In this document: positions 10,460-64,000 of the stretch, one piece after another
Numbering within the stretch: the stretch's first letter is position 1
How the letters are laid out: each line of letters opens with the position of its first letter
Sequence record: SRR9188677_103
Direction: 5' to 3' (one strand)
DNA: 64,000 nucleotides
Notes under the pieces: model-generated
What the model saw: the letters and a program-made list of their open reading frames with translations, nothing else
What the model was told of the DNA's origin: nothing
Database searches by the model: none
Made by a program: the position numbers and the translations under genes

Positions 10460-10464
10460 GGCTG

Positions 10465-10472
10465 CAAATGTA
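10465..10472 (-). promoter_or_regulatory. -7 promoter element (TACATTTG) 5 nt before the dut ATG
   Basis: Minus strand reads TACATTTG-CAGCC-ATG. Confidence 0.6.
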
Positions 10473-10597
10473 GGAAATGTATGAGAGTTGTTGGCATACC
10501 CGGCAACCGAAATGAGCGCACATGCCTCCACAACAGGCCATTCTTTGTTCGTTTTGATCAAAAATGGATTCATTGCTGTTTAGACAGCCAGATATCC

Positions 10598-10605
10598 TAT
10601 TTTTG
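10598..10605 (+). promoter_or_regulatory. -7 promoter element (TATTTTTG) for the lipoprotein gene
   Basis: TAnnTTTG match 39 nt upstream of ATG 10645, divergent from dut. Confidence 0.45.
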
Positions 10606-10644
10606 AAAGGTATAACAGCCCGGGCAAGAGGTCCGTATTACGAT

Positions 10645-11307: not shown

Positions 11308-11356
11308 ATTTACAACTGAAGATGTTACCTGCATTGATTTAACCTGATTCCTATCC

Positions 11357-22923: not shown

Positions 22924-24327
22924 ATGGCCAAAGCCTATAATCGTTATACAACCTTAAGATATATTATTGATGCACCCATCGTGTGCATTTCATATCTGGC
23001 AGCCATCCGTATGAGCAATAGTGACTCTACCACAAACGCCAGTGTGCGGATTTACCTCTTTGCATTGATCGCGCTGGCGGTATGGTATATTGCCTCTTCT
23101 TTTTCCCGTTTATATGCCGACAGGCGCTCTAACAAATATTCTGAAGAGATTGTATTCATTGTTTATACCATCATCCTTTTCACCATCCTTTTATCATCCG
23201 CTTCCTTCTTCCTGCGGAATACTTTTCAGTTCAATCCTAATTTTTTTACCTTTTTCCTTTCCCTGTTGTTTTTCCTGATGACACTGACCAAGTATGTTAT
23301 CAGAAAATACCTCCACTCAGCCATATACCAGGGAAAACTCTTCGATAATATCCTGATTGTGGGGTCAACCCCTTCGGCACTGGACTTTTACGAAACCATC
23401 AATAAATATTATTACTACGGTTATAAATGCATGGGCTTTCTGGACAATGACAATACCAAACTGAATGGTTGTACCTACCAGGGAAAGATCAACAACCTGC
23501 AAACCATCCTGAAGCTGCATCATATAGATGAAGTGGTGATAGCACTGCCCAATACCCAGAACGATGAGATACAGCAATGCATCGAACTCTGCGATTTCTA
23601 CAGAACCAAAGCAAGAATCATCCCCGATCTTTACCAGTATGCTTCATCTACTGTACAGGTAAATAATATCGGTTTGATGCCGGTAATCAGTATCCGCTCC
23701 CTTCCGCTGGATAAATCCGAGAATAAATTTCTCAAAAGAGCCTTCGACATCATTTTTTCAGCCCTGTTCTTCCTTTTGCTGGGGTGGTGGTTATTACCGC
23801 TGATCGCCTTCGCTATCAAATTCACTTCCCGCGGACCCATCATTTTTAAACAGGAAAGATGGGGGCTCAATAACCAGAAAATTATCTGCTATAAGTTCAG
23901 GAGCATGGTATCAGACAGTTCGGATATAGACCAGAACGGTTATTACCACCAGGCCAGCAAAGATGACCCCAGGGTAACCCGTTTAGGCGCTTTTCTCCGA
24001 AGAACCAATATGGATGAATTACCCCAGTTCTGGAATGTACTCCTGGGTAATATGTCTGTGGTGGGTCCCAGGCCCCATCCAACCCCCCTTAACCTGGAAT
24101 CCATGCATACGGTAGAAAATTATATGCTGCGCCATGTGGTAAAACCCGGCATTACCGGTTGGGCACAGGTAAATGGTTGCCGGGGCGAAACAAGGATACC
24201 CGGTTCTATGCAGCGAAGAGTTAATTTTGATCTGTATTACATCCATCGCTGGACATTCTGGCTGGATGGACAGATTATACTTCAAACGGCCATTAATGTT
24301 ATCAGGGGAGACCAGAATGCCTATTAA
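22924..24327 (+). CDS. Undecaprenyl-phosphate glucose phosphotransferase (WcaJ/WbaP type)
   Basis: N-terminal TMs, [53 protein letters not shown]. Confidence 0.92.
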
Positions 24328-26056: not shown

Positions 26057-26079
26057 GGCAAATATTTTCGATATTTGCC
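26057..26079. promoter_or_regulatory. 9-bp inverted repeat GGCAAATAT-N5-ATATTTGCC just upstream of the wza-like gene
   Basis: Perfect arms; ends 16 nt before ATG 26096. Confidence 0.4.
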
Positions 26080-26095
26080 GGAACCATTGAACCCG

Positions 26096-31309: not shown

Positions 31310-32908
31310 CTATAACAAATATTGAATACTCAGCCTGCTATGCAGATTGAACCGTTTACTGTCTTTATCCCATGCATAATTCTTACTGTTAATGAACTGC
31401 ATTTTTCCGGTTAGTACCATGTTCTTAATTCTGTATTGCGGCAGTAATCCAATACTGATGTCTATCCATTTTTCGTCATGGTACAGAGGGTCTCGTTCTA
31501 CTCTTTCAATCATGAGCCCTAAACGGCTCCAACCCTTTACCCAGGAAGCCTGCAGAGTTTGCACATTACTGCCGAAGCCGGCACCGGCTCCCAAGATCTG
31601 GTTATTGTGTGTATAACCCTGTGATATCTGTCCATGCACATACCAATTACCGGCCTCCCTTATCAGATAGTCGGGAGACTGGGTCATCTGAGTTGTTTCC
31701 AAACCCAGGTCCAGGTAAGTATCATTGGTTAAAGAAAGTATTTTTTTTACCCCGAAAAGATAGGCTCTGGAATGTGATGGAGTCATGACATAATCACGGA
31801 CATTCACACCGTAATCATTGAATCCGTATTCAACATATAGTTCTGTTTTCGCTTTTGGCAACATCCACCGTAGAAAAAAAGATGCCAACTGGTCTGTCCG
31901 TAAAGCATCATCATCTAAAGCATTCTTTTTCTGGAATGGTTTGAGAAGAATAGGCAGGTATTTGTTAAAAGCTGATCTACCCGACAATGAAAGGTCTTCT
32001 GTATACTGTTGTATGGCCCTTGTCATACCCATAAATAACCCGCTTACCCATTTGGGCTGGTAACTAATGACAAATGCATTCAGATACCTGCTGCTATTCA
32101 GAAGAGAAGCCTGTTTCAGATGATAATTTTCATAGGCATAACGATCATCAGAATTTAGCTGCCCGCCGATCAATTGCCACTCAAGTGTGCCGATCCCGAT
32201 ATTTACCGGAGCTTTGCTGCTGATGAATCCATGCAGGAAGCCCTGGGCATTGTTACTCATCAACAGGGAACTATGTCTGCCTGGTCCCCACCAGAGATTT
32301 TGGGTAGAAACTCCGGCTGAAAATTTGCCAACCGATAACCGGATACTTGACTGGCCCGCAAGCAGCCGATTAGATTGAATACCAGTATTCGCGCCGTAAC
32401 TGATGTTTGTTTCGTAGGGGCTGTTAGCAGCAAAATGCCATTCAGGCTGCAATTGCATTTCAAGCGGACCAAGGGCAAGATAAGCACCCACAGAAACAAG
32501 CGACTGGTAGCCTTTTGCAGCAATCATGGCACCATCGTTCCAACCATAGGGATGATGGGAATTGTATTGTTGCACGATATTGACAGGAAGAAAACCCAGC
32601 TTTCCTTTGTTACCTGCAAAGGAAAGATTTTGCTGGTACTGATGGGAAGCTGTCTGGCTCTGAAAACTGTATAGCTGATCCCATGAACGTTGATCAGCTG
32701 CGGTTAAGGGCCTCACGGCAAAAGAGAGTGAGGAATCAATTTTTCCCATCAACTGCATGGTTCTGAAAATCTCATCGGCAGCAGAACCCACAGCAACTAA
32801 CTGACCCAGCGAGAGAAAAGGAAAAAAAAGACAGGTAATAACAGCGAGTGAAAACCTGTCAGTAAAGAATCGGAATAAGCTGCTAGTCAAGAATATAGTT
32901 TTAAACAT
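31310..32908 (-). CDS. Capsule assembly Wzi family outer-membrane protein (paralog of 29616-31283)
   Basis: GQSSIR, STQNLWWGPGRHSSLLMSNNAQGF, GYTHNNQILGAGAGFGSN. Confidence 0.75.
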   Translation of the reverse strand: MFKTIFLTSSLFRFFTDRFSLAVITCLFFPFLSLGQLVAVGSAADEIFRTMQLMGKIDSSLSFAVRPLTAADQRSWDQLYSFQSQTASHQYQQNLSFAGNKGKLGFLPVNIVQQYNSHHPYGWNDGAMIAAKGYQSLVSVGAYLALGPLEMQLQPEWHFAANSPYETNISYGANTGIQSNRLLAGQSSIRLSVGKFSAGVSTQNLWWGPGRHSSLLMSNNAQGFLHGFISSKAPVNIGIGTLEWQLIGGQLNSDDRYAYENYHLKQASLLNSSRYLNAFVISYQPKWVSGLFMGMTRAIQQYTEDLSLSGRSAFNKYLPILLKPFQKKNALDDDALRTDQLASFFLRWMLPKAKTELYVEYGFNDYGVNVRDYVMTPSHSRAYLFGVKKILSLTNDTYLDLGLETTQMTQSPDYLIREAGNWYVHGQISQGYTHNNQILGAGAGFGSNVQTLQASWVKGWSRLGLMIERVERDPLYHDEKWIDISIGLLPQYRIKNMVLTGKMQFINSKNYAWDKDSKRFNLHSRLSIQYLL

Positions 32909-51341: not shown

Positions 51342-52850
51342 TTATGTTTTTGAGATCTTCGCAATGAGTGAGGTGTAGCTGACAGGTGCAAAAAAGTTGT
51401 TTACATACAAACGGATGCGTTCCAATTGCTTAAGCTTGGTTTCAGAAATATCACGTTCATTTACAATCCGGGAAAAATCATCAACTGTACTTATTGAAAA
51501 TATTTTGTCATTTACTTCGTACAAAGGGTCAATGACCATTTCATTTGTATAAAGATATAAGGGTATCAGCCCTGCATTAACAGATTGAATAATGGCTGTT
51601 GAACCTCGGTATAATGCCCATACAGAACAATTAATATCTTCTTCCAGTAATGACGTGGATAACCTGATATTAGAAGGAAGATTCTTTTTCGGCCCTACAT
51701 GATGTAATATTTCTTCAAAAGATATTACCGGGTGTACCCGCCAGATAAAATAGATATCCGGAAACTGTTTGGCGCAGGCAATTGAAAAATTGAATAACAG
51801 TAAACATTCAGAAAGTAACCCTTCCGGAATAACCAGACAGGCAGGTTGTTTACGTAATCCGGAAGATGAAACCAAATGGTTTTGTACAGAAGCCCTGTCG
51901 GAACCCAGTACATCCAGACTGATACCACCTAAACGGGATGATTTCCCCAATTGTTGCAGCCCTACTTTTCCGGCTGTAAATATGTGGTCTGGGTTATACT
52001 GTTCAGACAGGTTCCGGCGAATGGCATGTTGTAAACGGAAGATGGCAGCATGCTGGTATCCAAAACAACGAATATCCGGGTTACCCTTTCTTGCGGAAGC
52101 AAATACCACACGCTCCCATGCGTGCCCTTCGTAAGTAGTTATCACAAATTTAGGGCGCAGGTTCTTTACGAGTCTTTGCACCTGCCTTCCGATCCTCAGA
52201 TTATGAATGGCCTTTCCCGAACTGGCTTCATGTGCCGCTTTAAAGGCAACTTTTTTCAGCAGCCCATCCCCCGTTCTTTTACCATATGATGAAAGATGCA
52301 GAGATTCTCTAAGACAGTTAAGGTACAATCCCAATTCGCTAAAAAAACCCAAAACATCTGCCAATATAAAGCGTGGCACATTTGCTCTTTTCCATGTAGC
52401 AGACAATACTCTGCCTGGCTGCCTTGTATGATTAATTAAAACAAAAGCACTCTGTATCCCCTGTTCATATAATTTGTCTGCAAGGATGCCAAAATAAAAA
52501 TCAGCATCCTTACCGGCCTGTGTTACATTCAATAAATGAGAAACAAAGATAACCTCTGTTCTTTCTGTTTGTTTATGAGAACTGCTCCACCAACGGCTTT
52601 TGGCCAGTATCAGTTTTGACAGGTGTGCGAGTTGTTTTACCAGCAATCTGAACAGGTAGGACATTCCCCCTGTGCGGGTTAACTGATCCTTTTCTTCCCG
52701 GAAGAGGCTTGCATATGTTTCGAGGAAAACCGGGTGTTCCCGTATTACATGTAACCAGGGTAAGGCCACACGTTCTATACTGCTTCCTGGCTCCATCAAC
52801 AGTTGGTCGCAGGCATCACAAAGCGAATGATATTGCTGTTCAGAGATCAA
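51342..52850 (-). CDS. Hypothetical surface-carbohydrate biosynthesis protein, possible ulosonate transferase (GT-B-like)
   Basis: TTYEGHAWER, GYQHA, WRVHP, GSTA motifs; directly downstream of the CMP-transferase. Confidence 0.5.
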   Translation of the reverse strand: MISEQQYHSLCDACDQLLMEPGSSIERVALPWLHVIREHPVFLETYASLFREEKDQLTRTGGMSYLFRLLVKQLAHLSKLILAKSRWWSSSHKQTERTEVIFVSHLLNVTQAGKDADFYFGILADKLYEQGIQSAFVLINHTRQPGRVLSATWKRANVPRFILADVLGFFSELGLYLNCLRESLHLSSYGKRTGDGLLKKVAFKAAHEASSGKAIHNLRIGRQVQRLVKNLRPKFVITTYEGHAWERVVFASARKGNPDIRCFGYQHAAIFRLQHAIRRNLSEQYNPDHIFTAGKVGLQQLGKSSRLGGISLDVLGSDRASVQNHLVSSSGLRKQPACLVIPEGLLSECLLLFNFSIACAKQFPDIYFIWRVHPVISFEEILHHVGPKKNLPSNIRLSTSLLEEDINCSVWALYRGSTAIIQSVNAGLIPLYLYTNEMVIDPLYEVNDKIFSISTVDDFSRIVNERDISETKLKQLERIRLYVNNFFAPVSYTSLIAKISKT

Positions 52851-52865: not shown

Positions 52866-53645
52866 TTATTGAACAGGTGATTGCTTCAGGATGGTTTTCA
52901 GCAGTTCGGCCTGCTCCGCATTGTTTTCGATATAATCGAGTACGATGTGCGCTTCTGCCGGTTCGTTAACCGATGGCAAACTTGGATTAACCGGAACAGA
53001 GTGCAAGGCAAATCCATTTTCAATGATCCGCATCTGTTCAATGAATTCAACGGTTTCTATCGGTGCTGCGGGCATCTCGGTAAGTGCCATAAGGAACTCT
53101 TTCCGGTAGGCGATCAATCCCAATATTTTTCTCGTGAATGCCTGTTGTTTGGCCAGTTCACTATAAAAAGGGGATCGCCTGAAACAGAACATAACCCGGT
53201 CTTTGCGATCAACTGCGCATTTAACAAATGAATGGCGGTCCAGTTCCTCCGCTTGCTCAATAGGACCGGTGGCATTCCAGGCATCGCCTGATGGATTGGC
53301 TTCCATGGCTTTTGCCAGTGTTTGCAGGTGCCTGGGGAGCAAAAGAGGCTCATCACCCTGGAGTAAGATAACATGGGTGCAATCAATATTCTTTACCGCT
53401 TCGGCGATCCGGCTGGTTCCATTTGTATGTGTATTGGCTGTCATGATCACTTTTCCGCCAAAACCAGTGATCGCAGCTGCAATTTCTTCATCACAGGTAG
53501 CCACATATACATCAGCTACCGCACCCGATAACAAGGCCCTTCTGCGCACATGTTCGATCATGGGCAATCCATGAAACTGGAAAAGTATTTTCCGCGGAAA
53601 GCGCACCGAAGCCAGGTGCGCCGGGATTACAGCAACTATTTTCAT
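52866..53645 (-). CDS. KdsB-family CMP-ulosonate cytidylyltransferase (divergent)
   Basis: VIPAHLASVRFPRKIL, PMIEHV, VAT, GTSRIAEA, QGDEP, EQMR; ATG 53645. Confidence 0.85.
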   Translation of the reverse strand: MKIVAVIPAHLASVRFPRKILFQFHGLPMIEHVRRRALLSGAVADVYVATCDEEIAAAITGFGGKVIMTANTHTNGTSRIAEAVKNIDCTHVILLQGDEPLLLPRHLQTLAKAMEANPSGDAWNATGPIEQAEELDRHSFVKCAVDRKDRVMFCFRRSPFYSELAKQQAFTRKILGLIAYRKEFLMALTEMPAAPIETVEFIEQMRIIENGFALHSVPVNPSLPSVNEPAEAHIVLDYIENNAEQAELLKTILKQSPVQ

Positions 53646-53659
53646 AAACAGGTTTTCTA

Positions 53660-54412
53660 TTATTGAGGAAATACCCCACAGTCTACGTTGATACACTGCC
53701 CAGTGATAGCAGATGATGCCGGCGAAGCCAGAAATACGCACATGGCTCCTACTTCGGCTCCGGTGGGTAACCGTTTCAACGCAGCATTCTCTGCGGCAAA
53801 TTTTGAAATGAACGCGTACGGATCAGTGTTTGCTGCAGGTGCAAAAGGTTCTTTCAATGCTTCAATGAGGCCATCAGTAGTAATCAGTACCGGACAGAGC
53901 GCGTTCACGCGGATGCCTCTCGGACCTATCTCTTTGGCCAACGATTGGGTTAATCCGTTCATGCCGAACTTTGACGCACAATACATCGTATTATTTGCAC
54001 TGCCTCTTTTACCGGCGATACTGGAAATATTGATGATAACAGCTCCATCCTGCATAACCGCTGAGGCCGCTTTACAGCCCCAGAAAGCCCCTTTCAGGTT
54101 GGTACCGATCAGTTCATCAAAAAAGGATTCGTCAATATTGGCAATGGGACGCCATTCTGAAAAGCCGGCGTTATTGATAAAACAATCAAGCCGGCCTGTT
54201 TTTTCCATCGCTATTTGTACCAGTTTTACATGGTCGGATTCTTTCCTGACATCGATTTGCAGGAAGGTGATTTTATCGCCAAAACGTTCTTTGAGTCCCA
54301 TTTCCTTACGGGCGCCTACGATTACATGATACCCTGCATTTACAAAGGCTTCGGTTATGCTCAGTCCGATACCCCGGTTACCACCTGTAACCACTACCGT
54401 TTTTTGTTCCAT
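53660..54412 (-). CDS. SDR family oxidoreductase
   Basis: TGGNRGIG, NNAG, NISS, YCASKFG, ITGQCINVDCG. Confidence 0.92.
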   Translation of the reverse strand: MEQKTVVVTGGNRGIGLSITEAFVNAGYHVIVGARKEMGLKERFGDKITFLQIDVRKESDHVKLVQIAMEKTGRLDCFINNAGFSEWRPIANIDESFFDELIGTNLKGAFWGCKAASAVMQDGAVIINISSIAGKRGSANNTMYCASKFGMNGLTQSLAKEIGPRGIRVNALCPVLITTDGLIEALKEPFAPAANTDPYAFISKFAAENAALKRLPTGAEVGAMCVFLASPASSAITGQCINVDCGVFPQ

Positions 54413-54450: not shown

Positions 54451-55233
54451 TTAAATGGTCATACAGGAATATCCGCCATCCACTTCGATTTCTGCGCCGG
54501 TTACAAAACTGGCCGCATCAGAAGCCAGCCATAACATGGCACCCACCAGTTCTACCGGTTCACCAAATCTGGCCATGGGCGTATGGCCCAGGATAGCGGC
54601 TTCGCGTTCGGGCGTGATAAAATTCTTTCTGTTCCATTCTGTAGGGAGAAATCCCGGACGGATCGCATTTACCCGAACCCCCTTGGTTCCCCATTCCCTT
54701 CCCAGGTTCTGGGTCAGGTTTTTAATACCAGCCTTTGCTACTGAGTACGTAAATGCTTTTGACAATGGGGGACCTGCCGAAGCAGATGAGATATTGATGA
54801 TAGATCCGCTTCCTCTCTTTACCATATACTCTCCAAATACCTGACAACCGAGGAAGGTACCTGTAATCTGTGAGTCAATGATAGCATACCATTCTTTCAG
54901 ATCAATATCAAAGAAAGGAGTAGACCCGTTGATACCTGCGCCATTTACCAATATGTCTATTTTTCCGAACGCAGCCAGTACATCGTTCAATGCTTTCACG
55001 TGATCTTCTTTTTTAGCAACATCGATCGCCAATGAGATCACTTTATCGTTTCCGGCTGCACGTATTTCTGCTTCCACTGCCTGCGCTTTTTCGAGACGCA
55101 GATCAAGCACAGCAACAGCACAACCGGCACGGGCATACCCTCTTGCCATTTCGCCACATAAATGTCCGCCTGCACCGGTAACCACGGCCACTTTACCTTC
55201 CAGGTTAAATAGTTGATTGAGGTAAGTATTCAT
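54451..55233 (-). CDS. SDR family oxidoreductase (gluconate 5-dehydrogenase/mannonate oxidoreductase-like)
   Basis: LFNLEGKVAVVTGAGG, NISS, YSVAKAG, VNAIRPGF, HTPMARFGEP.ELVG. Confidence 0.88.
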   Translation of the reverse strand: MNTYLNQLFNLEGKVAVVTGAGGHLCGEMARGYARAGCAVAVLDLRLEKAQAVEAEIRAAGNDKVISLAIDVAKKEDHVKALNDVLAAFGKIDILVNGAGINGSTPFFDIDLKEWYAIIDSQITGTFLGCQVFGEYMVKRGSGSIINISSASAGPPLSKAFTYSVAKAGIKNLTQNLGREWGTKGVRVNAIRPGFLPTEWNRKNFITPEREAAILGHTPMARFGEPVELVGAMLWLASDAASFVTGAEIEVDGGYSCMTI

Positions 55234-55247: not shown

Positions 55248-56036
55248 TTATTTACGCATGTTATTGATCAGGCCCTGCATTTTTTCCGCCCATTTCCACA
55301 ACACAAAAAGATCTGATCCGAGAATGGCATAAGTGTGACCCAGATCAAAGAGCGCTTGTACACTTTCGGGAGTAGAGTCAGCTACCTGTGTGCCACAGCT
55401 TTTACCGTATTTTTCACAGGCTGCAATCACTTTACGGGAAGCTTCCAGTACCAACGGGTGAGTAGTTTGTCCGGGAACACCCAGCGAACCTGAAATGTCC
55501 AATGGACCAATCATCACGGCATCCACTTCATCAAAAGCGAGTAATTGCTCTATATTTTCTACTGCCTGTATGGTTTCTACCTGGATCATGAATATGGACT
55601 CTTTGTTCCAGTTATTGATATAGGTATCAAAGTCGAACCCGTATGCCTGGGCCCGATTCACACCATAACTTCTTTTACCAACCGGCGGGTATTTGATATC
55701 ATTGATCAATGCACGTACCTGTTCGGGCGTATTCACCATCTGTATCAGCATACCATCGGCACCAGACTCAATCAAGGGTTTGATCCAGTCGTTGGAGTGA
55801 GATACCGGGCGTGGCAGACAGGGAACGCCTTCACTCTGGCTGGCTGCGATAATGCGTTGTGCTTCTGCAAGTGAGATAGTGGAATGTTCCATATCAATGG
55901 CCATGAAATCGAAACCGGCCCTTGCAAAGGTTTCTGTGATGGACGGGTGTGCATAAGAAACCCAACCGGCAAACATTCTTTCTCTGTTACGGAGTTTTTG
56001 TTTGAGCGCGGCTCTTTTTTCAGCTATCGTATTCAT
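55248..56036 (-). CDS. HpcH/HpaI class II pyruvate aldolase
   Basis: GW, GFDF..IDMEHS, PRP, YPP.GKR, IQVET, IGPLDIS.SLG. Confidence 0.9.
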   Translation of the reverse strand: MNTIAEKRAALKQKLRNRERMFAGWVSYAHPSITETFARAGFDFMAIDMEHSTISLAEAQRIIAASQSEGVPCLPRPVSHSNDWIKPLIESGADGMLIQMVNTPEQVRALINDIKYPPVGKRSYGVNRAQAYGFDFDTYINNWNKESIFMIQVETIQAVENIEQLLAFDEVDAVMIGPLDISGSLGVPGQTTHPLVLEASRKVIAACEKYGKSCGTQVADSTPESVQALFDLGHTYAILGSDLFVLWKWAEKMQGLINNMRK

Positions 56037-56054: not shown

Positions 56055-57014
56055 TCAATGATCAAGCATGCTTCTCAACTGGTGGCGTATCGGTCCGTCG
56101 TATGGCCTGTAAAAAGGAGGATTCAAGAGGTAGTATTGCTGGTGCCATGGACACAGTTCATTAACCAGCACCTTATCGTTGGGTTCCCATGGGTAGTCTG
56201 CGATCCGGGTGATGGTGCCGTCGGGTAAGGATTTCTCTTCCCTGTTGCAGCAATAAAAATGAACCGGCCTTTTAGTGGCGGCCGAATGTATGTTGGCAAA
56301 GTAGCCTGCAATAACCGGAGGATCCATTTCCTGCATGGATACGATATTGATTACAATATCCGCCGGTAGTTCATTCAACAGGTCATGATCAGTCGCCTGG
56401 ATCGCTATTATGCGAATCCCCGGTTTATCCACTGAAATATCTTCCGATATGGCACGTGCCTCTTCGATTCCGGTAATCAGTTCTACGGAATGATCAAATA
56501 CTTCCTCTCCCAGCCATTGTTTCAGGTACCAAAGATCTACCAGTAAGGTTTTGGTAAGGTTTACCAGTACAATGGTACGCACCGATTGGCTGGCATGCAG
56601 CAAACAGGTCATTGATGCAAAGCCATCCCCAATTACCCATGCGATGCCATTTCCCGCAACCTTTACAGGGATATGTTGTTTGAGGAAAGCTAGTGTCAGT
56701 GTTTGCCTGAGAACATCCAACGAATACGCTTTTTTCTGTTTACGTGCGATATGGGCATTCAATGCATCCAACTTCGCAAAGCTGGGGTAAGCTGCACCCA
56801 TTTTTCTGAACCGGGCCTGCAGTATCCTGTGGCCGATCCAGTTAAACCCTCTGTAAGGTTTTTCCAGGCTGCCGAATCCCTGTAGTCCGTTGAAATCATC
56901 TCCGGTGAAATGAAACCCGGTATGGTATTTTTTCCAGTGAGAACTGGCAGCAGTATCTTCCTTGCGTACCTCGCCCGCCAGAAAAGCAATGGCTGATTGG
57001 CCTTTATAACCCAT
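56055..57014 (-). CDS. Putative sugar O-methyltransferase
   Basis: SSHW near N-terminus, VIGDGFA SAM-like loop, NIVSMQEM..I..YF, FYCCNREEK. Confidence 0.6.
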   Translation of the reverse strand: MGYKGQSAIAFLAGEVRKEDTAASSHWKKYHTGFHFTGDDFNGLQGFGSLEKPYRGFNWIGHRILQARFRKMGAAYPSFAKLDALNAHIARKQKKAYSLDVLRQTLTLAFLKQHIPVKVAGNGIAWVIGDGFASMTCLLHASQSVRTIVLVNLTKTLLVDLWYLKQWLGEEVFDHSVELITGIEEARAISEDISVDKPGIRIIAIQATDHDLLNELPADIVINIVSMQEMDPPVIAGYFANIHSAATKRPVHFYCCNREEKSLPDGTITRIADYPWEPNDKVLVNELCPWHQQYYLLNPPFYRPYDGPIRHQLRSMLDH

Positions 57015-57412
57015 TATTTATTTTTTAATAGTGCATCCACCACCGGATGCAAATGCAATAAACCAACCAGGATACCCTTATCATCCACCACTGGCAGATC
57101 CCAGATCTTTTTAGATTCCATCACCTCGATCACATGGGTAAGGGTATCTTTCGGATCAGTAGTTACGGGAGAAACAATGGCATGATCCAGTGCATCATCC
57201 ACAAAGAATGCGGAAAGAGGTTTTTGTACTTTCAATAATTTCCTGCGGATATCCCCATCAGTAAGGATCCCCAATAATTTATGGTTACTATCTACGATAC
57301 AGGCAATTCCAAGGCGAAGACGGTTCATTTCCTCCAGTGCTTCTTTCATGATAACCGTTTCTGCAATTACCGGGAACTTTATCAGCGGCAACATAACCTC
57401 ATTAACAAGCAT
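57014..57412 (-). CDS. Stand-alone CBS-pair protein (resembles the KdsD/KpsF C-terminal domain)
   Basis: V.EVM, LGILTDGDIRR, KKIWDLPVVD..G.LVGLLHLH; no SIS domain. Confidence 0.85.
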   Translation of the reverse strand: MLVNEVMLPLIKFPVIAETVIMKEALEEMNRLRLGIACIVDSNHKLLGILTDGDIRRKLLKVQKPLSAFFVDDALDHAIVSPVTTDPKDTLTHVIEVMESKKIWDLPVVDDKGILVGLLHLHPVVDALLKNK

Positions 57413-57416
57413 ACTA

Positions 57417-58298
57417 TTATTTTTTGGGGTGAATATTATCTGGACCATATTTTGCCAGTAATTCAAGACGGGTTTCGTGCATCACTTTTGCCTGGATAAG
57501 GATATTTTCCAGGTATTTGATATCCAGTACAGTATTGGCATCAGACAATGCATTATCCGGATCATCATGCACTTCCATGAACAGGAGGTTGATCCCGTTT
57601 GCAACAGCAGCCCTTACCAGATGTGGTATAAATTCGCGCTGTCCGCCGGATATATTACCCATCGAAGTTGGTAACTGAATGGAGTGGGTAGCATCAAAAC
57701 AAACCGGATAACCGGTTGAAGCCATGATGGGGAAACAGGTCATATCGTTTACCAGCATGTTATATCCGAAAAAAGTACCACGGTCTGCCAGGATAATCTG
57801 GCTGTTACCATTGGCTTCCAGTTTCCGGCAGGAGTTCTTCATGTTCCACGGACTCATGAACTGTCCTTTTTTCAGGAGTACGGGGCGGTTGGTCTTGGCG
57901 GCAGCTCTTAAGATAGAAGTCTGGCGGCATAAATAAGCCGGCACCTGTACCATATCGCAAACCTCACCGGTGGCGGCACCCCAGGCTGGATCTGAAAAAT
58001 CAGACACAACCGGTACACCAAACTCTTTCCGGATATCAGACAGTATCTGTAAACCTTCGTGGATCCCCATACCATGAAAGCTGGTAGGAGAAGAGCGACA
58101 ATCCTTGTCATAACAGGATTTGTAGATCCATTCGATACCTACCCTGCGGCAGATATCACCGGTAAGTTCAGCCATTCTGAAGGCATGATCACGGTTCTCT
58201 ATGGCGCAAGGTCCACCAACAAATACCAATGGAAGGTCTGCACCGATCTGTACAGGCTTCACATCACCATACCCAACTGAGATTATTTTATTTTTCAT
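57417..58298 (-). CDS. KdsA-family (KDO8P-synthase-like) PEP-dependent synthase, divergent
   Basis: GGPCAIE, QVPAYLCRQT, KKGQF, RGTFFGY, FDATHS, FMEVH..P..ALSD; KANRS replaced by KDCRS. Confidence 0.9.
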   Translation of the reverse strand: MKNKIISVGYGDVKPVQIGADLPLVFVGGPCAIENRDHAFRMAELTGDICRRVGIEWIYKSCYDKDCRSSPTSFHGMGIHEGLQILSDIRKEFGVPVVSDFSDPAWGAATGEVCDMVQVPAYLCRQTSILRAAAKTNRPVLLKKGQFMSPWNMKNSCRKLEANGNSQIILADRGTFFGYNMLVNDMTCFPIMASTGYPVCFDATHSIQLPTSMGNISGGQREFIPHLVRAAVANGINLLFMEVHDDPDNALSDANTVLDIKYLENILIQAKVMHETRLELLAKYGPDNIHPKK

Positions 58299-58339: not shown

Positions 58340-59407
58340 TTAGTAAATTATTTCAAAATAGGAAGAAGAGGTGTTCCGGAAAAAGTTTCGTCCGTATAAT
58401 TCTCTTCTCACGATCTGGTAATGGTTGATGGGGAAAATATCAAAATGACGGGTGGGTTTGCCATGAATCATATAGTCCCGGATAGTGATATCCGTATCAT
58501 AGGTCTTCTCAAAGAAGGGACTGCTCACAAACCGGTTAACCAGGTAAATATGTTTTGAAGTCTGGAAAAGTGGGCTGTCGAAATAATTCGAGAAATGATC
58601 TTTCCGCATTTCACCCAGGCTGAAGAAGTTGGACATAAGCGCTGCCTTATGGCCTGCGATCTTATGGAAATCATTGACTGGCACATACAGGAATGAACCT
58701 TCCGGCATATCTGACAGGTTCTTGAACTGATCAACTTCTGAAGGCAGGTAATGGTTGCTGTTGGGATACTGGGTACTGAGGTACAGATAACTGCGTAACA
58801 GCTGGTGATGAAAGTCTACCAGTACGATCCTTGATGTAGGATAATATTTTTTAACCAACCCCTGCAGGCCACCGTAAAAAGATCCGATATCCACCCATAC
58901 ATCTCCGGGAGCTAGTAATTGCTGGTTCCTGATCTGGGCCAGCAGGTAGATATATCTTAACCAGCGGTGAGACACCGAATAACCATTCACCAAGGGGAAT
59001 TGGGAAGCACCGGGGGTATCAATCTGCGGGTTATCTGTTAAGAGGTCTTTGCCGCCAATTGATTCAACGATGCTGATATCATCGAGCATCATGGAATGAC
59101 TGAACAGTCCCTGGATCCTGAAGTTGATCCTGTTGGCAATGTTTCCCAGGATCCTTGCAAGAAAGGAAGAATTATCACGAACCCCGATGGCAGCTTTTGA
59201 AAAAATATTCAGGCCATGGTTCACTCCCATATCCGACTGGCCGGCCCAATTACGAAGGCTATCAATGGTAAAACCCGAATGCAGCAGTTCATACGCACTA
59301 CTGATAATCTTCTGGTGTTTTGTATCTATCTCTGAGATGGATCCATCCTTAAAAAAATCCGGTGACTTTGAAATGAAATATTCTAACTGAGACTGAAACT
59401 TATCCAT
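58340..59407 (-). CDS. Putative sugar O-methyltransferase
   Basis: LRYIY, VDIGSFYGG, LVDF, NFFSLGEM...YF, VNR. Confidence 0.7.
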   Translation of the reverse strand: MDKFQSQLEYFISKSPDFFKDGSISEIDTKHQKIISSAYELLHSGFTIDSLRNWAGQSDMGVNHGLNIFSKAAIGVRDNSSFLARILGNIANRINFRIQGLFSHSMMLDDISIVESIGGKDLLTDNPQIDTPGASQFPLVNGYSVSHRWLRYIYLLAQIRNQQLLAPGDVWVDIGSFYGGLQGLVKKYYPTSRIVLVDFHHQLLRSYLYLSTQYPNSNHYLPSEVDQFKNLSDMPEGSFLYVPVNDFHKIAGHKAALMSNFFSLGEMRKDHFSNYFDSPLFQTSKHIYLVNRFVSSPFFEKTYDTDITIRDYMIHGKPTRHFDIFPINHYQIVRRELYGRNFFRNTSSSYFEIIY

Positions 59408-59416: not shown

Positions 59417-60142
59417 TTATTTTATCGCCAGGAACCCTTCAAATGCCAGGTATTTCTGAACGGTGCAAATATCAAGAAATCCTGCCCTTTTCAACATATC
59501 AACGTTGCCATTGGTAGAAAATGGTTCCAATATCCCTTTCAGGCTTCTTGTTTTTCCAATGATCTCTTCACAGGAATACCCCTGGGAAAGTTTGTAATCA
59601 TTATATAAGGTAGTGATGATATCCTGGAAACGGGCATCCGGGTAACGCACTTTCTCAAAGAGTATGAATGCACCTCCCCAGTTGAGTGATTCATAGATAC
59701 GGTTGATCAGGTTCTGTCTTTCTTTCGGATGAACAAACTGGATCGTATAATAACAAACCACCAGATCACAGGGTTCGAATTCGATACGGGTGATATCGGA
59801 GTCAAAGAACTGGATCTTTCCCGGCAGGGCGTTGAATTTACCCAGTTTCTCATTGGCTTTACCGATCATATCTGATTCGATATCGTATCCATAGAACTGT
59901 GCACCTTCCTTATTCCTGTTATGATTGTACAAATTGAACGTAAGTGTTCCGGTTGAACAACCCAGCTCATATACCACGGAATCCTTCTTCACAAAATAAT
60001 CGCTGAGCTGACAGATCAGGTTATGCCCTTCTTTGTAGAAAGGAACCGATTTGGACACATGATCATCAAAGCTGTCTACCATCTCACCTGAAAATTTCCA
60101 ATCGGCATTGCTGGCACTGATGTTATCACCAACTGTTTTCAT
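59417..60142 (-). CDS. CmoA (carboxy-SAM synthase)-family protein
   Basis: WKF...FDDHVSKSVPFY, VYELGCSTG, YTIQF, GGAFILFEK, DYK..QGYS..EI..K..SL, L..AGF match the CmoA layout. Confidence 0.8.
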   Translation of the reverse strand: MKTVGDNISASNADWKFSGEMVDSFDDHVSKSVPFYKEGHNLICQLSDYFVKKDSVVYELGCSTGTLTFNLYNHNRNKEGAQFYGYDIESDMIGKANEKLGKFNALPGKIQFFDSDITRIEFEPCDLVVCYYTIQFVHPKERQNLINRIYESLNWGGAFILFEKVRYPDARFQDIITTLYNDYKLSQGYSCEEIIGKTRSLKGILEPFSTNGNVDMLKRAGFLDICTVQKYLAFEGFLAIK

Positions 60143-60164: not shown

Positions 60165-61835
60165 TTAAAGATCTTTGAAAATATCCTCGAGTGCATCCCT
60201 TCCTAAGATCAGTTTGCCCTCCAGATCTTTCCCGAATTCAGCCCCGTAGGTATCCGGAACAAAAAACACCGATTTTTTGCAAATATCGGCCATAGAATAA
60301 TAGGTTGAAGTATAAGGGAAATTAATCACTAGATCGACCGGATTGCCTGCGATGCGGATATTACTATAGGGGTTAATCAACGAAAATAACGGACCCAATT
60401 CCTTTTGTATGGAGCCAATCATCGATTTGTAATCTTCTGGCAGTTCCGGCGAGGAAAGTGAGTACTTGGGTTTCAAAAAAATCTTACAGTTATATTTCCG
60501 CGAAAGATACACTATATCAGTAAAAAATGACCCCAAAAAATCCGGTTTGGCCGTTTTGTCGCCAATTATACTCCTGCCAAGGTCCTTATTGTCACTTTCG
60601 GTAGGTACATCAAAAACAAGGATCGCTTTCTCCTGATCGGTGAGGGTAAGTGTACAGTAAGTTTCGTACCCAAGGTTTACCGGTATGGCTTCGCTGATAT
60701 CGTAGCTGGCCAGTGGCAATCTTAATCCAAATCTCCCGTTTACATATTCCTTACAGCAATTGATCAATACAGAATGAAATGCGAACCCGATGGGATTACG
60801 CGCATAAAAGGAAAACACCGGCAGATCACATTCTTCCAGTAAGGCATCTCCTTCGAAAACCGTTTGCTGGTTCAGCATATTCCTGGAAACCTCTTTTGAC
60901 GGAGGTACAAAAAAATTCTGGCTATAAGAATATACTTCTATCAGTTTATCATATGCCGAACCGTATTTCAGTAAACCCAGTTCATGAAAAGCCAGTATAT
61001 AGATACGGGAGATACTGACATTTTTTGAGGTAAGTGCCTCCAGCATGGAAAGATAGCGGCGGGCAGTAAGCGACTGCCGAATATAGGCTACCAGTAAAAA
61101 AAGACCAGGTTTTTTGGTTCTCTGCCAATAGTTGCTGCACTCCCTGAAAAAAAGCCGGATAGCAGTGCCCCAACCCATTATTTCCGTAACAGCTGCCAGT
61201 TTTGTATGTGCGAACTCCATGGGCAGAAAAGCCTCTGCCTCCGTGTTGCCGGCTGTTTCGTGTTTCTTACTTGGCCGCTGGTATTCATCAATGGTCAGAA
61301 ATTGCTCCCCGCTGCCGGCCAGGTTTTTTTTTGAGATCAGGTATTCAACAAATGATTTCGGATATTTCATTTCATGCGGGTCATAGGAAAACGCATGTTC
61401 CGGGAACCCGATACAAACCGCGACCTTCCCCGATACCCCTGTATAGTCAATACCAAAACGGCACCTGAAACCCCGCAGTGAAACAAACAGGTCTTTCAAT
61501 ACATCTGTACCTGCATGCCACAAACTAAGCCACATAAAAAGCTCTTTCTTCAGGAAGGGCATTTTATGGCAGGTCTGGTAGGTAGCATACCGATGCCGGA
61601 AATGTTTTTTCAGCTGTCCACTGAACACATCCAGACAAAACTGCTGGGAGAACGCAGCTGTTGAAGCAGTGCCGGTAGCAAACGCCTTTCCGATATAGGT
61701 AAAAACCTCGGTATTGATCCCCAGGTTGATTCGCTTTCTTTCAGATACCCACTCTCCAAAACCCAGGTCTTTCCGCCCATAAATACACATGGCTTCATAC
61801 GAGTATCCATATATCTTTAATAAGGGTCTAACCAT
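60165..61835 (-). CDS. Hypothetical polysaccharide biosynthesis protein with C-terminal P(F/Y)TS motif
   Basis: 556 aa; VFDV, LKPKY and INFPYTST in the C-terminal region recall the PFTS-motif polysaccharide proteins. Confidence 0.5.
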   Translation of the reverse strand: MVRPLLKIYGYSYEAMCIYGRKDLGFGEWVSERKRINLGINTEVFTYIGKAFATGTASTAAFSQQFCLDVFSGQLKKHFRHRYATYQTCHKMPFLKKELFMWLSLWHAGTDVLKDLFVSLRGFRCRFGIDYTGVSGKVAVCIGFPEHAFSYDPHEMKYPKSFVEYLISKKNLAGSGEQFLTIDEYQRPSKKHETAGNTEAEAFLPMEFAHTKLAAVTEIMGWGTAIRLFFRECSNYWQRTKKPGLFLLVAYIRQSLTARRYLSMLEALTSKNVSISRIYILAFHELGLLKYGSAYDKLIEVYSYSQNFFVPPSKEVSRNMLNQQTVFEGDALLEECDLPVFSFYARNPIGFAFHSVLINCCKEYVNGRFGLRLPLASYDISEAIPVNLGYETYCTLTLTDQEKAILVFDVPTESDNKDLGRSIIGDKTAKPDFLGSFFTDIVYLSRKYNCKIFLKPKYSLSSPELPEDYKSMIGSIQKELGPLFSLINPYSNIRIAGNPVDLVINFPYTSTYYSMADICKKSVFFVPDTYGAEFGKDLEGKLILGRDALEDIFKDL

Positions 61836-61880: not shown

Positions 61881-62924
61881 TCAATTAATCAGGTCCCATT
61901 GTAAAGGGGTTCCCTTGGCAATATCCTGCCTTACCGTTTTACCCAATACCTGTTCAAAATATTTGGGTGCCAGTCCCTGGCCCGGTCTTACACAACGCAG
62001 ATTATCCCGAGTAAGTGTTTCGCCCGCTTTGATGTTCTCGGATATATAGAGGGACCTGCGGAACTGCAGGGATTTTTTTTCAGCTTCTGTTGGGCCATAG
62101 GTAATTTTACCCAGCGCCTGCCAGGCCCTTTCTGTTTCCGTTACCAGGCTTGCAAACTCTTCGGGTTCCAGTGAAAATGCGCTGTCCACTCCCCCATCCG
62201 CTCTTCGCAGTGTAAAATGTTTTTCAATCACACAAACGCCCAATGCTACTGCAGCAACTGCCACACCGATACCCATGGTATGATCCGATAATCCGATCTC
62301 GCAATTGAAGAGCTGACGCATATGCGGTATGGTTTGCAGGTTGCTGTTTGCAGGGATCGCGGGATAGGTGCTGGTACATTTTAACAGGATGAGGTCCCGG
62401 CAACCAGCCTCCCTTGCCGCTGTAACCGCATCTGTCAGTTCAGCAAGAGAAGCCATGCCTGTAGAAATGATCATGGGTTTGCCGGTTGCTGCTACCTTCC
62501 GGATCAATGGCAGGTGATTATTTTCAAAAGAAGCAATCTTATATGCGGGAACGTTGAGTGTTTCCAGAAAATCAACTGCAGTCTCATCAAAGGGACTGCT
62601 GAAACAAACCATACCCAGTTCATTGGCCCTTTTCATAATAGGTTCGTGCCATTCCCATGGTGTATAGGCTTCCTTGTACAGCTTATGCAGGGTTTTACCG
62701 TTCCATAAACTATTGTTATCCTCAATCTGGAAATCTTTGGTAGACACATCAAGTGTAATCGTATCAGCCGTATAGGTCTGTAATTTCAAGGCATGAGCAC
62801 CTGCTTTGGCAGCCGCTTCCACAATTTCCATTGCCCTGTCGAGTGAGTTATTATGATTCCCCGACATTTCCGCAATCAGAAATGGTTTGTAGCTGGCTCC
62901 TATATCAATATTACTTATTCGCAT
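61881..62924 (-). CDS. pseI: Pseudaminic acid synthase
   Basis: IAEMSGNHN, KLQTYTADT, YTPWEWH, KIASFE, LKCTSTYP, GLSDHT, IEKHFTL..GGVDSAFSLEP, C-terminal SAF domain; ATG 62924. Confidence 0.9.
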   Translation of the reverse strand: MRISNIDIGASYKPFLIAEMSGNHNNSLDRAMEIVEAAAKAGAHALKLQTYTADTITLDVSTKDFQIEDNNSLWNGKTLHKLYKEAYTPWEWHEPIMKRANELGMVCFSSPFDETAVDFLETLNVPAYKIASFENNHLPLIRKVAATGKPMIISTGMASLAELTDAVTAAREAGCRDLILLKCTSTYPAIPANSNLQTIPHMRQLFNCEIGLSDHTMGIGVAVAAVALGVCVIEKHFTLRRADGGVDSAFSLEPEEFASLVTETERAWQALGKITYGPTEAEKKSLQFRRSLYISENIKAGETLTRDNLRCVRPGQGLAPKYFEQVLGKTVRQDIAKGTPLQWDLIN

Positions 62925-62931
62925 GCTGCTT

Positions 62932-63381
62932 TTATTTATTATCCAGTGTAAACTTAATGAGTTGAATCCCGTTTTCCTCTGTGATGCCAGTGTTGATAAA
63001 TCCGACCCGTTCAAAAATTTTCACGGAAGCCAGATTGGCCGGTTTCACATAGGCAGCTATCTTTGCCTGGCCGATGGCCGCTAATCCAAGCCGGATTATT
63101 TTCTCGCCATATCCTTTTCCCCTTTGTGCAGCTGAAACAGAGTAACCGATCACCCATTCATCCGCTGCCTGCTCAAAACGGATCAATCCGATATTTTCCG
63201 AATCATCCACCAATATATACATCCGGGTATGGTCACTTTTCAGTTTTCTTTCAAACCATTTTATATGATCTTCCTGTGAGATGGCTGCACTGTTCACAGA
63301 CATTTCCCTCACAGCCGGATCATTTGCCCACCGGAACAGGAGTTCACTGTCGTTCATATCTACTGTTCTAAGTCTGATCAT
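62932..63381 (-). CDS. GNAT N-acetyltransferase (PseH-like)
   Basis: WAND..VR..S, EDHIKWF, IGLIRF, RGKGYG, N.AS..IF..GF; lies between pseG and pseI. Confidence 0.8.
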   Translation of the reverse strand: MIRLRTVDMNDSELLFRWANDPAVREMSVNSAAISQEDHIKWFERKLKSDHTRMYILVDDSENIGLIRFEQAADEWVIGYSVSAAQRGKGYGEKIIRLGLAAIGQAKIAAYVKPANLASVKIFERVGFINTGITEENGIQLIKFTLDNK

Positions 63382-64000
63382 CTGACAAGTTCCCTGAATA
63401 GCTGCCTGAAATGACTTTCAGACGCCAATGGATTTTCGAGTATACTGACCGGGTTTTCTACACGTGCAACCGTATCCGTCACTGTTTGCGCCGTTAGTTC
63501 TTCATGATTTCCTAGACCTACAGCTAAGTTATTATCCACGAAACCATCATATAAGCGTTGCTGGTTTTGTGCGGTAAGTACAGTAAAGCAATACAAACCG
63601 CGTGCGTAAGCTTCTATCAAAACTGTACTCGCAGAAACAAAAGCAAAACGGCACCGGTCCATGACAGCTACAATTGAGTCAGCCGAAAGATTCTGGTAAA
63701 GCGTGGTGCCACCTTCTTCTTCCATGCTCCGAAGTTCACTAAGAAGTTCATTGCTGAAATGGCTGGTACCTAAAACGTGTATATGGCTGAACCTTTTTGA
63801 GGCTTTCAGCCAACGACATACGGAGCGTGTGATGCCGTTTGTATCCGAACCACCCATGCTTACATAGATATCTGCACCGCTTTTTTCATCGGGGAACACC
63901 CTGAAGAAGGCTCTCCGCAAAATAGCATAGTCAAGCCCAATACAAAGCCTTGCCCTTGTAGGCTGATAGCAGGCGGGTGAAAGTCCAGGTGCATGGTTGA
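63378..64000 (-). CDS. pseG: PseG-family UDP-sugar hydrolase (5' end beyond window)
   Basis: Frame is open to the window edge: NHAPG...IGLDYAILRRAF...SMGGSD...SASTV.IEA...AQNQ. Confidence 0.8.
   Translation of the reverse strand, partial: NHAPGLSPACYQPTRARLCIGLDYAILRRAFFRVFPDEKSGADIYVSMGGSDTNGITRSVCRWLKASKRFSHIHVLGTSHFSNELLSELRSMEEEGGTTLYQNLSADSIVAVMDRCRFAFVSASTVLIEAYARGLYCFTVLTAQNQQRLYDGFVDNNLAVGLGNHEELTAQTVTDTVARVENPVSILENPLASESHFRQLFRELVR

Follow-up and report, generated by a model that had tools for sequence, protein, structure and literature searches.

A probable new variant of the KDO8P synthase family with a KDCRS motif, encoded in bacterial surface-glycan cassettes

Does a KdsA homolog whose substrate-selecting motif has been replaced still make the 8-phosphate of 3-deoxy-D-manno-octulosonate (KDO8P)? 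The question is raised by a 64,000-nucleotide stretch of DNA from sequence record SRR9188677_103 (hereafter, the window), in which a 293-residue open reading frame (ORF) encodes a protein of the KDO8P synthase (KDO8PS) family with KDCRS at the site of KANR(S/T). Together with the 3-deoxy-D-arabino-heptulosonate 7-phosphate synthases (DAH7PS), this family is a textbook case of one loop setting sugar-phosphate specificity, and to my knowledge studies have so far dealt with just two motif classes, KPRS and KANRS. A reading made from the letters of the window (the sequence-only reading) had proposed a third specificity class that condenses phosphoenolpyruvate (PEP) with an aldehyde other than arabinose 5-phosphate (A5P). 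In this study, it was found that the protein, called here the KDCRS enzyme or KDCRS-type KdsA, is probably a new variant within the KDO8PS family, whereas its new specificity is a claim. On balance, I favor the reading that it would make a Kdo-like sugar phosphate from a pentose phosphate other than the A5P supplied by KdsD.

The KDCRS motif and its protein

The codons AAG GAT TGT CGC TCT at window positions 58106..58092 of the minus strand encode KDCRS as residues 65-69, in the surroundings W I Y K S C Y D K D C R S S P T S F H G. When the protein was aligned with solved KDO8P synthases by phmmer, the motif lay without gaps against KANRT of 3fs2 and KANRS of 6mdy and 1fwn. Thus, the replacement read from the letters is confirmed by the codons and the alignment. 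PAYLCR for PAFLxR and DRG for ERG, which had also been pointed out, are both present.

The protein is a full-length match to DAHP_synth_1 (PF00793; 214.9 bits, residues 15-275) and shares about 50% of its residues with KDO8P synthases of solved structure (257 bits against 3fs2). Is it a DAH7PS? Its scores on the DAH7PS models are far under the cut-offs (NF006421, 136.6 against 335; TIGR01361, 124.9 against 267.75). KPR(S/T) is absent; the beta2-alpha2 loop is one residue longer than that of DAH7PS and has the KDO8PS length, and it is the host DAH7PS enzymes that carry KPRT. Among the KDO8PS models, the score lies under the cut-off of NF009109 (247 against 457); two others are weighed below.

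A constrained clade in distant bacteria

Is the motif a singleton or a sequencing error? In a search of 5.8 billion clustered proteins, KDCRS was present in all of the best 120 homologs (79-88% identity, 289-296 residues); it is also present in 190 of 190 clade sequences, and each of 80 genome loci carries a close relative, so neither explanation holds. In an exhaustive HMMER pass over 1.84 billion representatives clustered at 50% identity, one full-length cluster scored 545 bits and the next match 281 bits (50% identity); this drop indicates a clade without intermediates. The motif column of the query and the best 150 representatives (151 rows) contains KANRT in 66 rows, KANRS in 40, and KDCRS in five, namely the query, its own cluster, and fragments. 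In the remaining rows, the region is missing or other variants occur, among them KDNRS/T (three rows), KDWRS, KGNRT, and KSNRS/T. Because such variants exist, "invariant", the word that the sequence-only reading used for KANRS, is too strong. Other KDO8PS-family representatives departing from KANR(S/T) in these ways are P0174, P0202, P0205, P0217, P0230, P0180, and P0257.

A quick maximum-likelihood tree of 124 rows was rooted on two host DAH7PS enzymes. The 16 KDCRS proteins sampled form one clade (SH-aLRT 99) nested within KDO8PS diversity, and the monophyly that had been proposed as a check is thus borne out. The stem of the clade is 0.49 long and its tips measure 0.05-0.33, whereas the end branches of the whole tree have a median of 0.83; its sister relations have no supported resolution. 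The branching within the clade disregards taxonomy; for example, Methylobacter groups with Nitrospirota. Among the 25 closest pairs listed, all nine with a finite dS have a dN/dS of 0.011-0.052 at a dS of 0.8-2.5, the other 16 being saturated, and one pair has 97% protein identity at a dS of 1.9. Since dN/dS is low at high dS, the tightness of the clade reflects extreme constraint and not only recent transfer. The KDCRS clade is under very strong purifying selection.

A distribution scan with one genome per species gave 234 relatives, and the locus counts in this study rest on the best 80 of them (71-86% identity to the KDCRS enzyme). The clade reaches at least 10 phyla. Its hosts are found in Bacteroidota, Alpha-, Beta-, and Gammaproteobacteria, Thermodesulfobacteriota, Myxococcota, SAR324, Nitrospirota, Calditrichota, and Balneolota, and include Leptospira, Prochlorococcus, and the actinobacterium Ca. 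Planktophila. Among its carriers are abundant bacteria of fresh water and the sea (Pelagibacteraceae, SAR116, Prochlorococcus, Flavobacteriaceae, Methylobacter, and Ca. Planktophila), and it is also present in Leptospira and Legionella. The cassette that encodes the enzyme is horizontally mobile between distant bacteria, with KDCRS-type kdsA as its most conserved gene.

A search of plasmids and phages gave no KDCRS-type copy, every match being less than 60% identical. Synechococcus phage S-SCSM2R (PQ898602.1) has an annotated KdsA and KdsB, and this KdsA is 35% identical to the query and not of the KDCRS type. An Enterobacteriaceae copy had no match in 5,426 complete E. coli genomes, so that this search gave no tie to a known O-antigen structure. 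Fused forms were sought and none was found; the sole longer match was a 1387-residue eukaryotic protein (46% identity), and none of the best 120 near-length homologs exceeds 296 residues.

The sugar side of the active site

Which parts of the active site differ? I compared the 190 KDCRS-clade sequences with 73 canonical KANR(S/T) sequences in the numbering of the KDCRS enzyme (Table 1).

Table 1. Positions at which the KDCRS clade departs from canonical KDO8P synthases
Position	Motif in KDO8PS	Canonical	KDCRS clade
62	KSS	S 73/73	C 190/190
66	KANR(S/T)	A 73/73	D 190/190
67	KANR(S/T)	N 73/73	C 190/190
75		R 67/73	H 189/190
102	TDxH	H 73/73	S 190/190
122	PAFL	F 62/73	Y 190/190
128	RQTD	D 67/73	S 181/190
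172	ERG	E 64/73	D 183/190

The Ser of K(S/A)S and the His of TDxH, which are fixed in canonical enzymes, are thus not kept. In addition, the L7 lid from P210 to R221 is invariant in the clade, PTSMGNISGGQR (P-T-S-M-G-N-I-S-G-G-Q-R), whereas canonical lids are glycine-rich and variable, and a conserved C-terminal tail, G-x-D-N-V-H, has been added. The clade-specific changes fall on loops L2, L3, L4, and L7, as placed by strand and loop position; these loops are what I take to be the aldose-phosphate half of the KDO8PS active site. On the other side, K60, K65, Q118, K143, R173, and H205 are unchanged in 190/190, and the metal ligands C31, H205, E242, and D253 are each intact in 190/190, in agreement with the sequence-only reading. 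The PEP-side and metal roles of K60, K65, Q118, K143, R173, H205, C31, E242, and D253 are assumed here from the KDO8PS literature. The aldose side of the pocket appears wholly remodeled, with the PEP and metal residues intact. I consider it fairly probable that the KDCRS enzyme is a functional, metal-dependent, PEP-using synthase descended from a KDO8P synthase, in which the sugar-phosphate half of the site was rebuilt.

In a docking and molecular dynamics study of the N. meningitidis enzyme, the motif Asn and Arg lie on the hydroxylated linker of an A5P-like ligand, and Pro-x-Phe-Leu of PAFL lies inside the A5P pocket (PMC6650799). I infer how the numbering of that study maps onto residues of the KDCRS enzyme. 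Residue roles were also sought in PMC3052366, and none of them was found there.

Non-phosphorylated or acidic aldehydes had been put forward as substrates. In this alternative, the aldehyde is non-phosphorylated, amino, or acidic, and Asp66 pairs with an amine or neutralizes the phosphate site. It is true that the pocket, with an added Asp and Tyr and without a His and an Asn, has a greater negative charge and could accommodate a cationic group, and that most cassettes, including that of the window, lack a phosphatase of their own. However, the phosphate-site residues R68, S69, and R125 are unchanged in 190/190, no aminotransferase recurs among the clustered ORFs of the 80 loci, and a KdsC-type phosphatase gene lies within 10 kb in 13 of the 80 loci. 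Such genes join the cassette exactly where the host has no other KdsC-family match: in Devosia, Prochlorococcus, and L. noguchii, the cassette gene is the sole match above the cut-off. I regard this alternative as highly improbable; a phosphorylated aldose, probably of five carbons, fits far better. Since the phosphate site and the KdsC partner are kept, the KDCRS enzyme would still bind a sugar phosphate, and since the loop length is unchanged, the sugar would have about five carbons.

Coexistence with canonical KdsA and hosts without KdsD

Is the KDCRS enzyme simply the KdsA of its host? Ten host genomes were searched with PF00793 and the motifs were read, and KdsD was surveyed in 50 hosts. 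Six of the ten have the KDCRS enzyme together with a canonical KANRS/T KdsA (L. noguchii, Aquirufa, G049, G055, G056, and G057). The KDCRS type is alone in the other four: a single-amplified genome (SAG) of Planktophila, Prochlorococcus, a Devosia isolate with two copies, and a metagenome-assembled genome (MAG) of Asaia. In G049, an Acetobacteraceae MAG, both types lie at locus L053 in one co-directional array (5373-12522, plus strand) that would encode two parallel ulosonate pathways: canonical kdsA, kdsB, full kdsD, an unknown 592-residue gene, KDCRS-type kdsA, the CBS gene described below, kdsB′ (the cassette type of kdsB), and kdsC. The canonical kdsA scores 403.8 on TIGR01362 and kdsB scores 372 on NF003948, whereas KDCRS-type kdsA, which scores in the same pattern as the window copy, remains under the cut-off (313.0 against 314) and kdsB′ under both KdsB cut-offs.

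No KdsD above the cut-off was found in 18 of the 50 hosts. Nine LpxC-positive genomes lack both such a KdsD and WaaA (PF04413): Devosia G005, G029, G050, and G051; G013, G017, G026, and G027; and Prochlorococcus G002. G005 and G002 also lack canonical KdsA. Absences from MAGs and SAGs are weak evidence, and they are strong only for the Devosia isolate and in their consistency across the four Devosia genomes. The KDCRS enzyme is non-redundant with canonical KdsA and independent of a dedicated isomerase.

The nine genomes look like those of Kdo-less lipopolysaccharide (LPS) makers that still bear a KDCRS cassette. In G057, a 0.8 Mb gammaproteobacterial MAG, a TAA lies within the canonical KANRS kdsA (G057:C39:6527-7330, L098), and a different contig (L104) bears a second, partial fragment of the KDCRS type.

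The CBS-only partner

What takes the place of KdsD in the cassette? No SIS isomerase was found as a cassette member in the 80-locus survey. Rather, the gene following KDCRS-type kdsA encodes a protein whose best NCBIfam matches are the C-terminal 100 or so residues of KpsF, GutQ, and KdsD. Of the 268 positions of TIGR00393, it matches just 165-268 (69.1, under the cut-off of 203.7), and it has no SIS isomerase domain. By hhalign, the family profile matches residues 203-319 of full KdsD with a probability of 98.7% (E 2.2e-16, 32% identity). The best PDB match, at 83.8 bits, is 4o9k, in which the CBS pair of an A5P isomerase stands alone; this entry was presumably solved with CMP-Kdo bound, which would fit a role in end-product sensing. 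By these matches, the CBS-only protein is a remnant of KdsD from which the isomerase domain has been lost.

In the window, the CBS gene begins 4 nucleotides past the stop codon of KDCRS-type kdsA, and the gap is 1-7 nucleotides in 39 of the 46 loci with an assignable start. From this spacing, the two genes are predicted to be translationally coupled. The CBS-only protein is most likely a ligand-sensing partner of the KDCRS enzyme, although it is their adjacency that is observed.

Composition and architectures of the cassette

The window is a large capsule/O-antigen-type region with a Wzx-like flippase, many GT2 and GT4 enzymes, and FnlA-like, WecB-like, RmlD-like, and Bac_transf genes. A survey of the gene neighborhoods agrees with the expectation that KDCRS genes lie in glycan loci (Table 2). 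When 1,328 ORFs were clustered in an unbiased way, the following gene order proved to be usual: a PFTS-motif protein (335 bits on TIGR04417), an FkbM methyltransferase, two families called c8 and c10, KDCRS-type KdsA, the CBS-only protein, optionally NanM-like protein 2, the HpcH aldolase, two short-chain dehydrogenases (SDR1 and SDR2), the KdsB-like enzyme, the 502-residue protein, and a GT2-like enzyme.

Table 2. The KDCRS motif, its gene, and the neighboring genes in the window. The last column gives the number of loci, of 80, with a tblastn match to the window protein at a query cover of at least 50%; many loci are cut contigs, and the counts are lower bounds
Feature	Coordinates	Strand	Basis	Loci
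KDCRS motif, residues 65-69, beta2-alpha2 loop	58092..58106	-	At the KANR(S/T) site; 190/190 in clade, KAN 73/73 in canonical
KDCRS-type KdsA, KDO8PS-family PEP aldol-type synthase, 293 aa	57417..58298	-	Pfam, NCBIfam, tree, dN/dS
CBS-pair-only protein, 132 aa from ATG at 57412	57014..57412	-	Pfam CBS; KdsD/KpsF C-terminal domain without SIS domain	79
NanM-like putative sugar O-methyltransferase 2 (optional)	56055..57014	-	TIGR04371, 48.8 > 44	23
HpcH/HpaI-type class II pyruvate aldolase (optional)	55248..56036	-	Pfam HpcH_HpaI, 102 bits; PDB relatives HpaI/YfaU/GarL	51
SDR1 (optional)	54451..55233	-	Best NCBIfam mannonate oxidoreductase, gluconate 5-dehydrogenase; NF006132, 255.6 < 281	54
SDR2, glucose-1-dehydrogenase-like short-chain dehydrogenase (optional)	53660..54412	-	Pfam/NCBIfam	54
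KdsB-like cytidylyltransferase	52866..53741	-	CTP_transf_3, 123 bits; best PDB match 1gq9, CMP-Kdo synthetase	59
502-aa protein, unnamed family, invariant R-x-H-P	51342..52850	-	Candidate CMP-sugar transferase	38
NanM-like putative sugar O-methyltransferase 1, upstream neighbor	58340..59407	-	TIGR04371, 115.7 > 44	3
CmoA-like class I SAM methyltransferase, window-specific accessory	59417..60142	-	TIGR00740, 162.2 < 193.3	2
Distant PFTS-motif-like protein	60165..61835	-	TIGR04417, 24.7 < 100
Adjacent pseudaminic acid genes PseI, PseH, PseG (PseG extends beyond the window); context and not part of the core	61881..63998	-	TIGR03586, 515.5 > 340; PseH and PseG partial scores	23 (PseI within 10 kb)

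Four architectures were found. The first is the full cassette. The second, minimal one consists of KDCRS-type kdsA, the CBS gene, and kdsB′ without HpcH or SDRs (e.g., L003, L019, L077, L059, and L068), and in the third, the kdsA-CBS pair stands alone next to pseudaminic acid genes (L014, L026, and L061). The fourth lacks the pair and came from a reverse search starting from HpcH, in which KDCRS-type kdsA lay upstream in 40 of 43 metagenome loci; SDR1 and the KdsB-like gene were present in 39 of 39 metagenome loci with downstream room. Two loci of similar content, L115 (2335-12611) and L123 (563-12606), have PFTS, methyltransferases, an acetyltransferase, c8, c10, HpcH, two SDRs, the KdsB-like gene, and a protein of about 497 residues, and the kdsA-CBS pair is cleanly missing; in L115, an FMN-reductase-like gene is inserted in the cassette.

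The KdsB-like lineages follow the presence of the HpcH/SDR module, with two label changes against a shuffled mean of 12.9, a figure confounded by kinship, while KDCRS-type KdsA is 71-86% identical across all architectures. Since the KdsB-like lineages track the module and the synthase stays uniform, a common product that is tailored before activation would fit. Because HpcH is kin to ordinary class II pyruvate aldolases and SDR1, among the NCBIfam models, best matches mannonate oxidoreductase and gluconate 5-dehydrogenase, a free keto-deoxy acid is the probable substrate of the module; the PDB matches of SDR1 are nearly tied between gluconate 5-dehydrogenase (1vl8) and glucose-1- and 7alpha-hydroxysteroid dehydrogenases. 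The module was also considered as a substitute for KdsD; this was rejected, since full cassettes are found in KdsD-bearing hosts (Leptospira and Aquirufa).

The KdsB-like protein of the window is under the KdsB equivalog cut-offs (TIGR00466, 123.3 against 155.2; NF003948, 123 against 281) and above that of the subfamily NF003952 (197.3 against 193). Seven of seven further cassette KdsB-like proteins are under both equivalog cut-offs, whereas the canonical KdsB beside one of them passes. I take 1gq9, the best PDB match of the window protein, to be the CMP-Kdo synthetase of an E. coli capsule. The listed GTG start overlaps the end of SDR2 by about 80 nucleotides; the true start is probably an ATG near 53645, because the family match begins at residues 33-36 (MKIVAV...).

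The 502-residue protein has no Pfam or NCBIfam match, and its family profile found nothing in the PDB below E 0.02. Its invariant residues are E241, E246, Y265, H267, R371, H373, and P374, and an HP motif is typical of CMP-sugar transferases. Its neighbors in the Atlas bear Glyphos_transf and Capsule_synth, which is a lead only.

Could the sugar have another chain length? In this alternative, erythrose 4-phosphate, a hexose 6-phosphate (as in Kdn-9-phosphate synthesis), or glyceraldehyde 3-phosphate would give a hept-, non-, or hexulosonate. The cassette phosphatase scores nearly equally on the KDN-9-P phosphatase and KdsC models (122 and 127 bits) but misses the KDN-9-P cut-off of 180, and in L053 KdsC is ahead (122 against 145-148). 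Nonulosonic acid genes are often near, as the PseI count indicates, whereas the cytidylyltransferase is of the KdsB type and not of the NeuA/PseF type (35.6 against 205.7 for PseF). The candidate substrates are universal metabolites, which would fit the absence of an isomerase; on the other hand, the loop has the KDO8PS length and not the one-shorter length of KPR(S/T) enzymes, and the DAH7PS scores are far too low (137 against 335). I judge another chain length to be improbable, and prefer a pentose phosphate.

Does the KDCRS enzyme use A5P?

According to the nearest alternative, the protein is a plain KDO8P synthase acting on A5P, in effect a second KdsA of the capsule type, and the changes tune regulation, metal use, or the partnership with the CBS protein but leave the choice of substrate as it was. 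The cassette would then make CMP-Kdo, or Kdo tailored after its synthesis. In this section, the points that weigh against a new substrate are set beside those that favor it.

The enzyme passes the NF003543 KDO8PS equivalog cut-off (329 against 242) and is only 2 bits under that of TIGR01362 (311.8 against 314), and its partners are KdsB-like and KdsC-like; against an ordinary KdsA, the cassette KdsB-like proteins are under the KdsB equivalog cut-offs. None of the catalytic and phosphate-binding residues of KDO8PS has been lost, the loop length is unchanged, and A5P use is possible for that reason. The KDNRS/T variants suggest that the change from A to D alone may be compatible with A5P. For N48, H83, and L7 (A. 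aeolicus numbering), roles in A5P binding are largely assumed. However, the Ser, Ala, Asn, and His that are fixed in every canonical sequence are all replaced throughout the clade.

As for the hosts, KdsD is above the cut-off in 32 of the 50. The only nearby copies seen are within about 4 kb of the cassette in two Acetobacteraceae loci, L053 and L054, and the Asaia MAG (G054), which may be incomplete, has KdsD and only the KDCRS enzyme. Against an ordinary KdsA, the clade is kept beside the canonical enzyme in most of the ten genomes and within one array, it occurs in Devosia and Prochlorococcus without KdsD, WaaA, or canonical KdsA (the last read in G005 and G002), and the KdsD of the cassette has lost precisely its isomerase domain. 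Finally, 3 of the 43 metagenome loci keep HpcH, the SDRs, and the KdsB-like gene without the kdsA-CBS pair, so that the downstream module can be fed in some other way, and such cassettes could use host Kdo.

I consider an ordinary KDO8P synthase possible but rather unlikely. As for the proposed third specificity class, the clade, its coexistence with canonical KdsA, the KdsD-free hosts, and the rebuilt aldose pocket speak for it, and the kept phosphate site and the NF003543 score speak against part of it.

A possible pathway from a pentose phosphate

Under the favored reading of a pentose phosphate other than KdsD-made A5P, the KDCRS enzyme would condense PEP with an aldose that carries a phosphate, probably has five carbons, and arises in the host independently of KdsD. 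The obvious candidate is ribose 5-phosphate (R5P), the C2 epimer of A5P, and the enzyme would then yield a 3-deoxy-oct-2-ulosonate 8-phosphate that differs from KDO8P. Canonical KDO8PS binds R5P but is not known to turn it over, and a rebuilt pocket would thus be necessary. With a universal metabolite as the substrate, the loss of the SIS domain and the portability of the cassette would both be explained.

A KdsC-type phosphatase, whose gene is present in some hosts, would then remove the phosphate. Where present, the HpcH aldolase and the two SDRs may remodel the free acid, and the KdsB-like enzyme, by its family, would make the CMP-sugar. The 502-residue HP-motif protein and the neighboring glycosyltransferases and methyltransferases may set the sugar into a capsule/O-antigen-type polymer.

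A fuller version is tentative and, taken as a whole, rather doubtful. In it, the third specificity class takes R5P from the pentose phosphate pathway to a 5-epi-Kdo-type (D-altro) octulosonate 8-phosphate, and no isomerase is needed; the CBS partner would be a fossil of KdsD that senses the CMP-sugar end product and gates the synthase, and in Devosia and Prochlorococcus the sugar may replace envelope Kdo.

A full-text literature search found no paper describing the KDCRS motif or the cassette. A Leptospira comparative paper only lists kdsB1 and kdsB2, although its S6 Table may list the genes (PMC4758666). KDCRS would be a third, strictly conserved loop type with a coordinated rebuild of the sugar pocket. 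If the substrate differs, an acidic sugar and a CMP-sugar pathway, both of them new, would be defined, thousands of "kdsA" and "kdsB" annotations would be wrong, and the surface-glycan determinant would likely be relevant to phage and grazer recognition.

Comparison with known systems

The closest known enzymes are the metal-dependent KDO8P synthases (EC 2.5.1.55; the A. aeolicus 1fwn series and Brucella 3fs2). They share with the KDCRS enzyme the DAHP_synth_1 TIM barrel in a full-length collinear alignment at the identity given above, the Cys/His/Glu/Asp ligands, the PEP-side Lys, Arg, Gln, and His, the Arg-Ser pair and the Arg of PAxLxR, and the loop lengths. The differences are those in Table 1, the invariant lid and the GxDNVH tail, which only the KDCRS enzyme has, and the genetic setting, a mobile glycan cassette in contrast to LPS core genes. 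Type I-beta DAH7PS shares the superfamily and the chemistry, and it offers a precedent, in that the same loop differs between the two known specificity classes. However, the KDCRS clade nests within KDO8PS and not between the two families.

How does the cassette compare with the CMP-Kdo pathway, KdsD-KdsA-KdsC-KdsB (KpsF and KpsU in capsule copies)? A synthase, a cytidylyltransferase, and in the 13 loci a KdsC-type homolog are likewise found in one operon. In contrast, the isomerase is cut down to a CBS pair, the cytidylyltransferases are under the KdsB equivalogs, HpcH and two SDRs are added in about two-thirds of the loci, and the candidate transferase belongs to an unnamed HP-motif family, not to WaaA or a recognizable KpsS/KpsC.

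The Kdn-9-phosphate pathway of Bacteroides consists of a synthase, a HAD phosphatase, and a CMP-Kdn synthetase. Its logic is similar: PEP and a sugar phosphate of central metabolism, a KdsC-family phosphatase, and CMP activation. The Kdn-9-phosphate synthase is of the NeuB family, whereas that of the cassette is of the KdsA family, and the cassette phosphatase misses the cut-off of the corresponding model.

Other genes and observations

A tblastn search of the 64-kb window gave no KdsC-family gene (best E 0.47). In 21 other loci, bona fide PFTS proteins (295-338 bits on TIGR04417) lie upstream. The c8 and c10 families, of about 270 and 270-320 residues, are unknown families directly upstream of KDCRS-type kdsA in 22-23 of the 80 loci (e.g., L001:7402-8208 and L001:8681-9640), and both are missing from the window. 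They have no Pfam or NCBIfam match, and hhalign gave no kinship with NanM or FkbM.

In a freshwater metatranscriptomic library, two 151-nucleotide contigs match the window at 57290-57440 (100%) and 57487-57637 (two differences), which cover the junction with the CBS gene and the 3′ part of KDCRS-type kdsA. Since DNA carry-over is possible, they hint only weakly at transcription in nature. Elsewhere in the window, three Wzi-like (Caps_assemb_Wzi) paralogs at 24173-25978 (plus strand), 29616-31283 (minus strand), and 31310-32908 (minus strand) lie around a Wza-like exporter at 26075-28423.

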